From contig NC_090404.1 of NCBI RefSeq assembly GCF_036365525.1, positions 43,471,544 to 43,535,543 of the forward strand: a DNA stretch of 64,000 nucleotides. Reading direction: 5' to 3'. Made by a program: the position numbers and the translations under genes. Positions 40,446 to 64,000 of this stretch are shown one piece after another. A model generated the notes under the pieces. That model was given only the letters and a program-made list of their open reading frames with translations. It had not been told where the DNA came from and searched no databases. Each line of letters begins with the position of its first letter. Within the stretch, counting starts at the first letter, position 1. Source of the DNA: Heterodontus francisci (taxonomy: Eukaryota).

Positions 40446-43115
40446 TGTAACTTTATATGGGGATTAGGTGTTGTGTATATATAGTGTTCCAGTTAAGTGG
40501 GCGATGGAGTGGCTTGTTCCCACTGTTCACCTCCCAACTGACCACCGCAAGTGTTTTTATTACCGAAGTAAGGCTCACAGGTCTATAATTACCAGGGCTG
40601 TCTCTACTCCCCTTCTTGAACAAGGGGACAACATTTGCTATCCTCCAGTCTTCCGGCACTATTCCTGTCGACAATGACGACATAAAGATCAAGGACAAAG
40701 GCTCTGCAATCTCCTCCCTAGCTTCCCAGAGAATCCTAGGATAAATCCCATCTGGCCCAGGGGACTTATCTATTTTCACACTTTCCAAAATTGCTAACAC
40801 CTCCTCCTTGTGAACCTCAATCCCATCTAGCCTCGTAGCCTGAATCTCAGTATTCTCAACAACATTTTCTTTCTCTACTGTAAATACTGACGCAAGATAT
40901 TCATTTAACACTTCCCCTATCTCCTCTGATTCCACACACAACTTCCCACTATTATCCTTGATTGGCCCTAATCTAACTCTAGTCATTCTTTTATTCCTGA
41001 TATACCTATAGAAAGCCTTAGGGTTTTCCCTGATCCGATCCACCAGTGACTTCTCGTGTCCTCTCCTTGCTCTTCTTAGCTCTCCCTTTAGATCCTTCCT
41101 GGCTATCTTGTAGCTCTCAAGCGCCCTAACTGAGCCTTCACGTCTCATCCTAACATAAGCCTTCTTCTTCCTCTTGACAAGCGCTTCAACTTCTTTAGTA
41201 AACCACGGCTCCCTCGCACGACAACTTCCTCCCTGCCTCACAGGTACATACTTATCAAGGACACGCAGTAGCTGCTCCTTGAATAAGCTCCACATTTCGA
41301 TTGTTCCCATCCCCTGCAGTTTCCTTTCCCATCCTACGCATCCTAAATCTTGCCTAATCGTATCATAATTTCCTTTCCCCCAGTTATAATTCTTGCCCTG
41401 TGGTATATACCTGTCCCTGCCCATCGCTAAGGTAAACCTAACCGAATTGTGATCACTGTCACCAAAGTGCTCACCTACATCTAAATCTAACACCTGGCCG
41501 GCTTCATTTCCCAGTACCAAATCCAATGTGGCATCGCCCCTGGTTGGCCTGTCTACATACTGTGTCAGAAAACCCTCCTGCACACACTGGACAAAAACTG
41601 ACCCATCTAAAGTACTCGAACTATAGTATTTCCAGTCGATATTTGGAAAGTTAAAGTCCCCCATAACAACTACCCTGTTACTCTCACCCCTGTCGAGAAT
41701 CATCTTCGCTATCCTTTCCTCTACATCTCTGGAACTATTCGGAGGTCTATAAAAGACTCCCAACAGGGTAAGCTCACCTCTCCTGTTTCTAACCTCAGCC
41801 CATACTACCTCAGTAGACGAGTCCTCAAACGTCCTTTCTGTCGCTGTAATACTCTCCTTGATTAACAATGCCACACCCCCCCCCCCCCTTTTACCATCTT
41901 CTCTGTTCTTACTGAAACATCTAAATCCCGGAATCTGCAACATCCATTCCTGCCCCTGCTCTACCCATGTCTCCGAAATGGCCACTACATCGAGATACCA
42001 GGTACCAACCCATGCTGCAAGCTCACCCACCTTATTCCGGATGCTCCTGGCGTTGAAATAGACACACTTTAAACCAGGTTCTTGCTTGCCAGTGCCCTCT
42101 TGCGTCCTTGTAACCATATCCCTGACCTCACTACTCTCAACATCCTGTACACTGGCACTACAATTTGGGTTCCCATTCCCCTGCTGAATTAGTTTAAACC
42201 CCCCCGAAGAGCACTAGCAAACCTTCCCCCCCCCCCCCGCCCCCCAGGATATTGGTACCCCTCTGGTTCAGGTGAAGACCATCCTGTTTGTAGAGGTCCC
42301 ACCTACCCCAGAAAGAGCCCCAATTATCCAGGAAACCAAATCCCTCCCTCCTGCACCATCCCTGCAGCCACGTGTTCAACTCCTCTCTCTCCCTATTCCT
42401 CGCTTCGCTATCACGTGGCACGGGCAACAACCCAGAGATAACAACTCTGTTTGTTCTTGCTCTAAGCTTCCACCCTAGCTCCCTAGTTCATGATACACTT
42501 GTTGAATCTTCTTGAAGGAAAGTATCTTTAAAGTTACAGGCTTGGGTGTTTGTAGTTTTCTGGTGGTTTAGACTTTAGGCTGGATGTGCTGGCCACTTTC
42601 AGTTCTCTGCTGCAACCAGTTGAAGAGCAGAATTCGCAGTCGGGCTCTTTCCTTGTTTTTTGCTGGTCATCTTTTCACAGACCTTGGCCGAACTGCTTTT
42701 CTGTGATGTTCTCATGATCTCTCACCCTTCGCCCTCCACAGAGCCACCTTTCCAAGGTACGAATCTCTCACATTAACCTCGGTTCGAAGACTCATGACTC
42801 CCTCCCCGCTGTGACCACACAATGCGCCAGTATGTGGCGACTTCATACCTTTTTCGTTTCAGAAGAACCCATTCAATTCAAGAATGTCACTTGATGTTTT
42901 TGGGACACCTCTTAGCCTGGAATGTATTCTTTTGTCCTTAACAAACAGTGAGGGCTTGAATAACCAGGCCAAGTCAGCTGACCTTCGGCGGCCATTTTGC
43001 AGTGCATTGTCCACTTATTAAAAGAAAAGCCATTTTTTATAACTTTTCAATTTGATTCTGTATTTTCATCGTTGCAATTCTCGTGAAAGTTGCAATAGTT
43101 TAAGTACTTGTAACG
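40446..43115. mobile_element. LTR-like repeat split by the CR1 fragment (arms ~40446-40559 and ~42486-43115)
   Basis: TGTAAC start and GTAAC(G) end, non-coding; loosely similar in layout to the 5366-6270 repeat. Confidence 0.35.
40560..42485 (-). mobile_element. Young CR1 internal fragment: ORF1 esterase C-terminus plus uninterrupted ORF2 APE endonuclease/linker, no RT
   Basis: ORF 40453-42117 (554 aa): YFNARSIRNK, VAISETW, GGGVAL, FYRPP, MGDFN, LDLVL, SDH, ending at NYRPVSLTSV; ORF 42194-42430 carries DGLHLN (SGNH esterase of CR1 ORF1). Confidence 0.95.
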
Positions 43116-62854: not shown

Positions 62855-62910
62855 CTCATGGTCTCTCAAGCCGCCCTATGCAAATCAGCCGAGTCTCCAC
62901 AGGTTTATAA
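62855..62910 (+). promoter_or_regulatory. Ig V-gene promoter: heptamer-like CTCATGG (62855-62861), GC box, octamer ATGCAAAT (62878-62885), TATA-like TTTATAA (62904-62910)
   Basis: Perfect Ig octamer in heavy-chain orientation ~20 bp upstream of the TATA and ~120 bp upstream of the leader ATG. Confidence 0.85.
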
Positions 62911-63004
62911 GGTCGGTGTTCAGACACACACCGTTACACAGAACAGTCAGTGCTGAGGTCTGGAGCTCACTTTGTTTAAATTGTTCCCTGCTGGTGAACA
63001 AACC

Positions 63005-63047
63005 ATGAATATTGTTTGGGTTTCGGTCCTTTTAACCTGGTTACCAA
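63005..63047 (+). CDS. IgNAR: IgNAR leader exon (MNIVWVSVLLTWLP + split Asn codon)
   Basis: ACCATG start, hydrophobic signal peptide resembling known IgNAR leaders (MNIFLLSVLLAWLPN), phase-1 donor A|GTAAGT at 63048. Confidence 0.93.
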
Positions 63048-63187
63048 GTAAGTGCTGTTTATTAAAGAGATTAAATGTTAATTGCATAAAACTGCGTGGC
63101 TGTGTGACATTGTGGAAATTGTCTTACCTTTAAACTCTTGTATTGTTTCAGACAAGCGATGTACTAAATATATTTTTCTCCATTCAG

Positions 63188-63475
63188 ATGCCTTCACTAC
63201 AAGAGTGGACCAAACACCAAGAACGGCAACGAGAGAGACAGGCGAATCCCTGAGCATTAACTGCGTCCTCACTGATACTAGCCATATTTTGTTCGGCACA
63301 AAATGGTTCTGGAATAATCCGGGTTCAACAGATTGGGAAAGCATAACGATTGGCGGACGATATGTTGAATCAGTCAACAACCAAGCAAAGTCATTTTCTC
63401 TGCAAATCAAGGACCTGACAGTTGAAGACAGTGGCACCTATTACTGCAAAGCGCAAACCATAGGAAGACGCAAAC
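63188..63475 (+). CDS. IgNAR: IgNAR variable (VNAR) germline segment, type IV/IIb-like (only the two canonical Cys)
   Basis: After acceptor CATTCAG (AG at 63186-63187) reads (N)[95 protein letters not shown]; diagnostic VNAR framework with the CDR2 deletion; in frame with the leader. Confidence 0.97.
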
Positions 63476-63513
63476 CACAGTTATGTGTCTGAGCTTTCAC
63501 CAATACAAAAACA
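63476..63513 (+). other. V 3' recombination signal sequence (23-type, 22-bp spacer)
   Basis: CACAGTT (63476-63482) + 22 nt + ACAAAAACA (63505-63513). Confidence 0.92.
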
Positions 63514-63702
63514 TTTTCCAATCTCCAAGGGAAGAAAATACGAATTGTTTCGCTCTTTTCACTGAAACTTAATTTGCAGCATTGATTCTGAGACTGGAGA
63601 TGATTTGCAAATAGCTGGTGACAGACCGCGCAGCAAAGACCCCCAAACGGGACAGTTGGATATGCAGAGCCGCTGTTGAACTTACATTTATGCAAGTAAA
63701 CC

Positions 63703-63785
63703 TGTTTTTGCACTGAGCTGTACCACTGTGTCGATACTTCAGTAACCACAGCAATCGAAGAGCTGGTTCCTGTCATACACAAACT
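63703..63785 (+). other. IgNAR D segment (63731-63746, TCGATACTTCAGTAAC) flanked by a 12-RSS and a 23-RSS
   Basis: TGTTTTTGC (63703-63711) + 12 nt + CACTGTG (63724-63730); CACAGCA (63747-63753) + 23 nt + ACACAAACT (63777-63785). Confidence 0.92.
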
Positions 63786-63974
63786 ATGAAAACACTATTT
63801 TCATTGGAACAAGGGCAATATTTCTCTGATGCTGAAGTATGAAGAGTAGATACTCAGTATTTTGGAGGGATAACACTCTTCATTCTCAGAAAACCTTGGC
63901 AAAATGTATTATTTCGGGAATCCGGATTGCAGCATGCATCTCGACCTGAGTCACTTGTATTGATGTACATGAGA

Positions 63975-64000
63975 CCTTTTTGCACTGATCTCTGTGACAG
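63975..64000 (+). other. 5' 12-RSS of the next D segment (cut by the window edge)
   Basis: CCTTTTTGC (63975-63983) + 12 nt ACTGATCTCTGT + GACAG... (heptamer incomplete); similar to the first D's 5' RSS. Confidence 0.7.

Follow-up and report, generated by a model that had tools for sequence, protein, structure and literature searches.

In cattle, the germline V gene IGHV1-7 carries an 8-bp duplication at its 3' end, encoding CTTVHQ, that fixes the start of the stalk of the ultralong CDR H3 (accessible text of PMC8508064, which cites Deiss et al.). In the shark antibody IgNAR, germline joining has been described for nurse shark type III and for bamboo shark IgNAR2, 5, and 6, in which D segments are fused, according to those portions of two reviews that were available (PMC4622739, PMC8692893). 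One of these, again in its accessible sections, associates type III with a CDR1 cysteine, a conserved tryptophan, and a D1-D2 fusion in nurse shark, and defines type IV (or IIb) variable domains by a V without non-canonical cysteines (PMC4622739).

An IgNAR cluster in the horn shark, Heterodontus francisci, appears to combine features of these systems in a different way. As in IGHV1-7, a short duplication at the 3' end of V would lengthen the germline V and fix the first residues of CDR3, so that the two genes, which are not homologous, would work alike; the shark gene has gained 17 nt, with a self-match at a lag of 17. Unlike in the cattle gene, the gain is of 17 nt and of six residues rich in basic side chains, and the duplication would enter the recombination signal sequence (RSS), so that part of the signal would have become coding. 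The shark antibody is also a single domain with a CDR3 of 24-27 residues and no knob, and a stalk fold for its stem is putative. With the germline-joined IgNAR clusters it shares a CDR3 that is partly fixed in the germline, but those clusters fuse their D segments and drop a rearrangement step, whereas this one keeps V, D1, and D2 free. The locus offers a traceable candidate for a recombination signal taken up into the loop that binds antigen. It also parallels IGHV1-7, CDR3 apparently having been lengthened in two distant lineages through a small duplication at the 3' end of V.

The window, by which is meant the whole 64,000-nt stretch of DNA analyzed, includes at its 3' end the 5' part of this cluster: octamer, leader, V, D1, and the start of the D2 RSS. 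Motif scans placed an Ig octamer (62878..62885, plus strand) upstream of the leader, where by analogy with known Ig promoters it would act as a promoter element, and a TATA-like motif at 62906-62910. The leader exon (63005..63047, plus strand, ATG at 63005) is followed by an intron (63048-63187) and the V exon (63188..63475, plus strand), and the reading frame is uninterrupted from the leader ATG to the end of V. Contigs from four of 15 listed public runs were aligned to positions 62900-64000 at 80% likeness (X2, DNA; X5 and X6, RNA-type; X9, organism B), with results drawn from 40 of 47 difference rows, 18 of 47 loose contig ends, and 32 of 1127 pieces. The RNA label of X5 and X6 was only a guess, and they are treated as RNA here because both show the leader-V splice (63047>63188, GT..AG).

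The V exon has the affinities of a NAR V segment, with two canonical cysteines and a short CDR2 region; in a search of the PDB, the best 30 matches were all shark VNAR-like chains (E ≤4e-24), the next match standing at 1e-14. The order of elements is that of an IgNAR cluster, in which leader, V, and a 22/23 RSS precede a D with a 12-RSS, here for V, D1, and the start of D2. As far as the V part alone can be read, the pattern is that of type IV/IIb, with two cysteines only and a histidine in place of the CDR1 cysteine of closely related genes. It is not that of type III, as V has neither a CDR1 cysteine nor a CDR1 tryptophan, and D1 and D2 are separate, each with its own RSS. No further NAR V or C exon was found by tblastn in window positions 1-62000, and none upstream of V. 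Several long open reading frames of positions 1-62000, of which the longest encodes 586 residues (40453-42213, minus strand), resemble by eye fragments of reverse transcriptase or LINE elements.

The germline start of CDR3 (63448..63475, plus strand) follows the second cysteine codon (63445-63447, plus strand) and comprises 28 nt that encode KAQTIGRRK plus one base, with four Lys/Arg and no Asp/Glu. It leads directly into the V RSS (63476..63513, plus strand), composed of a heptamer (63476-63482), a 22-nt spacer, and a nonamer (63505-63513). A preliminary description of this DNA had given the same 28 nt, the same KAQTIGRRK end, and a 22-bp spacer, and the coordinates and open frame agree with it. 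An exact consensus RSS pattern matched nowhere in the window; a loose scan matched 62 times, and only the V RSS and the 5' RSS of D1 lay within two mismatches of the consensus.

Beyond the V RSS, intervening DNA (63514..63702, plus strand) separates V from the 5' RSS of D1 (63703..63730, minus strand, 12-nt spacer). D1 itself (63731..63746, plus strand) is 16 nt long, and its 3' RSS (63747..63785, plus strand, 23-nt spacer) is a weaker match to the consensus. The 5' RSS of D2 (63975..64000, minus strand, 12-nt spacer) is cut by the window end, and D2 would start at about 64003; contigs of all four runs pass 63998 as loose ends into a 15-nt D2 followed by a heptamer.

Comparison with sister clusters reveals what is unusual about this V end. 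Positions 63341-63710 are covered in the DNA run by a 353-nt contig (X2 record 4, depth 23.3) that has nine other letters and a single gap of 17 nt at 63452. It reads as a short V whose last codons are K-A-Q, with two bases left over; beyond these, the RSS and the spacer as far as the D1 RSS are those found in the window, and the contig is colinear with the V-D1 stretch of the window, with three differences over 63476-63710. Independently of X2, the X6 run contributes a loose end (behind 63460) with a short V end that runs into the same spacer. Sister clusters therefore have 11 nt after the second cysteine, against 28 nt in the window V. Fourteen of the 15 amino-acid differences between the window V and the H. 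francisci IgNAR UTD43068.1 fall in codons at which the X2 sister contigs differ, and the short form is therefore the UTD43068.1 type of gene. The published clone Tn16, with KAQG followed by DTSV (PMC10141372, Table 1), corresponds to a short V end followed by one frame of the window D1. These sisters share with the window V an identical leader peptide, 74 of 89 V residues (83%, for UTD43068.1), and the same RSS, spacer, and D1; they differ in their short KAQ end, in the presence of the CDR1 cysteine, and in 14 replaced codons.

The long form has its own evidence. It is present without a gap in an RNA-type contig (X5 record 16, 63446-63982), and again in X5 record 15 and in loose ends behind 63474 and 63475, all of them RNA-type contigs independent of the window. 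Among the eight DNA-run pieces listed over the 28-nt spot it is absent, the contig listed there being of the short form; farther upstream, the window V's own alleles are found in DNA (X2 record 2, no differences, depth 10.6 of 27.8). The 28-nt V end is confirmed as real.

The origin of the additional bases is suggested by the sequence itself. The 17 nt absent from sisters (63452..63468, plus strand), delimited by the gap in X2 record 4, would be the first copy of a duplication, with 63469-63485 as the second. Positions 63452-63463 match 63469-63480 at 11 of 12, or 12 of 17 over the full length, against 8 of 12 at the next best lag in the range 6 to 30. A match of 11/12 at lag 17 occurs only once among 63,972 positions of the 64-kb window; among 20,000 local shuffles, 1 reaches it at lag 17 and 53 do so when all lags of 6-30 are allowed. 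The lag also equals the gap length obtained independently from the sister-contig alignment. Tandem Repeats Finder returned no rows at the 17-nt repeat. The matching 12 bases consist of seven coding bases and the first five bases of the heptamer, which would place a putative heptamer-like relic at 63459..63465 (plus strand), within the codons for T-I-G, with its CAC start now CAT. This first copy lies 39 bp from the nonamer, and no other nonamer occurs at 11-13 or 21-24 bp from it (5-8 mismatches). Since the last five bases of the first copy match at only one of five, a duplicated span of 17 nt and one of 12 nt with five filler bases fit equally.

We put at roughly four in five the probability that the V end was lengthened by a tandem duplication spanning the coding end and the heptamer. 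A short duplication would have copied the last seven coding bases together with the first part of the RSS; the earlier of the two heptamers, too far from the nonamer to be used, would have lost its CAC and become part of the codons for T-I-G. As the RNA contigs show, RAG cuts at the second heptamer, so that the six residues TIGRRK are added to the usual KAQ before V-D1-D2 joining.

Rearranged sequences indicate that this longer end is used. In X5, loose ends of two contigs consist of V up to 63475, uncut, six extra bases, and eight D1 bases, and that of one contig consists of V up to 63474, four extra bases, 9 of 10 D1 bases, and then eight D2 bases (D bases matched by eye). Joins of the uncut and of the 1-nt-trimmed extension thus both occur in RNA-type contigs; V-D1 joins at 63474/63475 indicate that the second heptamer works and that the whole extension can survive joining. 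These examples were drawn from the 18 of 47 loose ends listed and give no frequency of retention. Sister alleles account for 91-99% of RNA contig depth at 63208, 63340, 63381, and 63434, in two runs of one sample, and the long-V cluster may be a minor one in RNA, contig depth being a poor measure. Unrearranged transcripts were also observed. X6 contains unrearranged V-D transcripts in long and short forms, and the unrearranged long-V contig of X5 (63446-63982) has four differences near D1, one of which is the minor D1 variant; this contig may come from another allele or another copy of the long-V cluster, or be the product of merging.

The same residues begin the CDR3 of published horn-shark antibodies. 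The preliminary description had mentioned horn-shark vNAR clones whose CDR3 starts with QTIGRRK, and two such clones from H. francisci are indeed in print: T1 (type IV, CDR3 of 24 residues; accessible text of PMC9982792) and V13 (type IV, 27 residues; accessible parts of PMC6576789 and PMC5923400). Both were located by searching for the motif and are thus evidence of retention and not of its rate. They resemble the window gene in the start of CDR3 and in having no non-canonical cysteine, and differ from it in being rearranged products. A framework peptide of T1 matches the window V, and the same peptide is common to the sister type. From the motif and the type IV pattern, the long-V locus is likely to be the germline source of T1 and V13. 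The word "germline" is absent from the accessible main text of the T1 paper and of the library paper, and no paper on a germline origin of the motif or on this gene was found in a search of text that extended to few subscription journals and patents. Protein searches at near length (16 matches) and at longer length (6 matches of 53 candidates) returned none with the motif.

A germline origin of QTIGRRK would explain why independent horn-shark binders of unrelated antigens, TGF-beta and VEGF, share it: the motif would be inherited and not antigen-selected. It also bears on docking models and on library design with the T1 scaffold. More generally, in antibodies from the long-V cluster the principal binding loop can open with a germline-fixed segment of positive charge.

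Divergence of the window V from its sisters is not confined to its 3' end. The comparison uses X2 records 1, 3, and 4, for which all differences are listed and in which sister contigs are merged majority paths; the leader lies outside the count, as do positions 63711-63746, which hold D1 with a portion of its 5' RSS and have three listed differences. The exon has 21 differences in 269 nt, against five in 716 non-coding nt of the flanks (0.7%; p 1e-8). Within it, all 14 codons that differ up to the second cysteine (19 nt; 63190-63475) alter the residue and none is silent only, for which the probability by chance is 0.02; a conservative test of replacement versus silent changes, restricted to the exon, gives a borderline p of 0.05. 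Loss of the CDR1 cysteine, with histidine where sisters have cysteine, is one of these 14 changes. When five outgroup proteins are used for polarity, 10 of the 14 codons are derived in the window V, three in the sisters, and one is open, with organism B contradicting one of the ten derived calls (63434). Twelve of the 21 exon differences are adjacent, against a random mean of 3.0 (26 of 100,000 simulations).

We read these exon changes as suggesting that a young paralogue has been under selection, and the rapid decay of the relic heptamer would fit such a history as well. We infer that selection may have favored a cluster whose CDR3 loops are long, free of disulfides, and built on a fixed basic stem, much as cattle IGHV1-7 provides a fixed start to its stalk. 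A more speculative and rather doubtful reading is that the hypermutation machinery of the shark struck this V in the germ line and that selection then fixed the result, yielding a pre-matured antibody gene. A single burst would cover the 17-nt duplication, the adjacent changes, and a three-base codon change; tandem changes are a hallmark of shark somatic hypermutation (accessible portion of PMC4279169), and RAG is active in shark germ cells (PMC2193156, in the part available). Against it, there is almost no change in the intron and spacer, changes are also clustered by selection within codons, and the enrichment of differences at hotspots is weak (9 of 21 differences, compared with 62 of 269 sites). 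With the near-identical sister clusters it can be tested cleanly how a disulfide-free, basic-stem type of antibody arises, and whether changes like those of hypermutation enter the germ line of sharks.

Several other origins of the additional bases have to be weighed against tandem duplication. In an open-and-shut event, RAG would have cut V at its RSS in a germ cell, and the coding end would have gained untemplated bases before being rejoined to its own signal end. Such an event would place the gain at the coding end and leave RSS and spacer intact, as found here, and joining of the RAG type is on record for shark germ cells; the same source, in its accessible text, reports that germline joins show little sign of TdT activity (PMC2193156). 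Moreover, the added bases copy the downstream sequence at 11 of 12 positions, heptamer included, which is unlike untemplated addition and makes this origin unlikely. Germline capture of a rearranged cDNA junction was likewise considered, and rejected as leaving the heptamer match unexplained.

Less probable again, and hard to sustain, is the converse history, in which the long end is ancestral and slippage between the repeats removed 17 nt from the sisters. The footprint would be the same if direct repeats had recombined to delete one copy, and the V ends of outgroups are read from proteins and not from germline DNA; the contigs listed for organism B (X9) leave 63455-63475 uncovered. In these proteins, however, four Triakis cDNAs have only K/T-A-Q in common and are variable thereafter, a Cetorhinus model reads KAK, and none contains TIGRRK, pointing to a short ancestral V end. 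The preponderance of derived codons in the window V argues in the same direction, and a heptamer-like copy within V would in any case require a prior duplication.

A germline V-D join is expected to delete the V RSS and its spacer, leaving the 3' RSS of a D in their place. The preliminary description had offered a pre-joined D and a fixed extension of V as two options, and of these the extension stands, the 17-nt end almost certainly being a fixed part of V. If the additional bases were instead a pre-joined D, the RSS that follows them would be the 3' RSS of that D. Shark Ig clusters often contain pre-joined segments (PMC8692893, PMC5192425, PMC4622739, and PMC4279169, as far as their text was available), and the D segments of this cluster are read only as far as D2. 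The RSS and spacer of the window, however, are those of the unjoined sister V genes, which carry them colinearly. The V-D1 spacer is no more than weakly alignable to the D1-D2 spacer (161 identities, numerous gaps), and the two are therefore too unlike to be mistaken for each other. The next D in the window is the one that Tn16 joins straight to a short V, and the IgNAR fusions described in the accessible parts of the reviews are of D with D (PMC8692893, PMC4622739). A comparison proposed with the preliminary description, of the extension with D segments and of the spacer with V-type and D-type flanks, also speaks against a D: the longest run common to the 28-nt extension and D1 is 3-4 bases, and the spacer is of the sisters' V-D1 type. 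The join is thus refuted, short of a former extra D whose spacer was a near-identical copy of that of V, and its remaining probability is very slight; V, D1, and D2 are all free in the long-V cluster. Least probable of all is an assembly or somatic artefact, for which the short form of the listed DNA-run contig over the V end would speak, but against which stand the gapless RNA-type contig and rearranged loose ends with the long form, the presence of window V alleles in DNA, and QTIGRRK in two published clones.

Contig depths provide some indication of how many such clusters the genome contains. In DNA, with a total of about 28, they split 10.6/17.2 over V (63224-63370) and 10.4/13.5/5.0 over D1 (63681-63775), which would fit about three IgNAR clusters, depth being an unreliable guide to copy number. 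One X2 DNA contig leaves V at 63264 into unrelated sequence, perhaps from a truncated V copy elsewhere.

A horn-shark "type V" has been proposed, with CDR1 cysteines at positions 29 and 32 (accessible text of PMC6576789). At 63292-63294 in CDR1, the sister DNA contig listed has a cysteine at the first of these positions and a tyrosine codon at the second. The letter that would make a cysteine at the second position occurs at low depth in the RNA runs and is the main form in organism B. Type V may reflect somatic mutation of Tyr to Cys that recurs, or a gene copy masked where contigs were collapsed.

The arrangement of the D segments also hints at an older history. The V-D1 (63476-63730, 255 nt) and D1-D2 (63747-64000, about 256 nt) spacers are nearly equal in length, and their alignment, weak as it is, scores above all 200 shuffles; from this likeness, the D unit perhaps arose by an old duplication. 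In X9, from organism B, a loose end at 63731 shows a spacer of the V-D1 type leading into another D.
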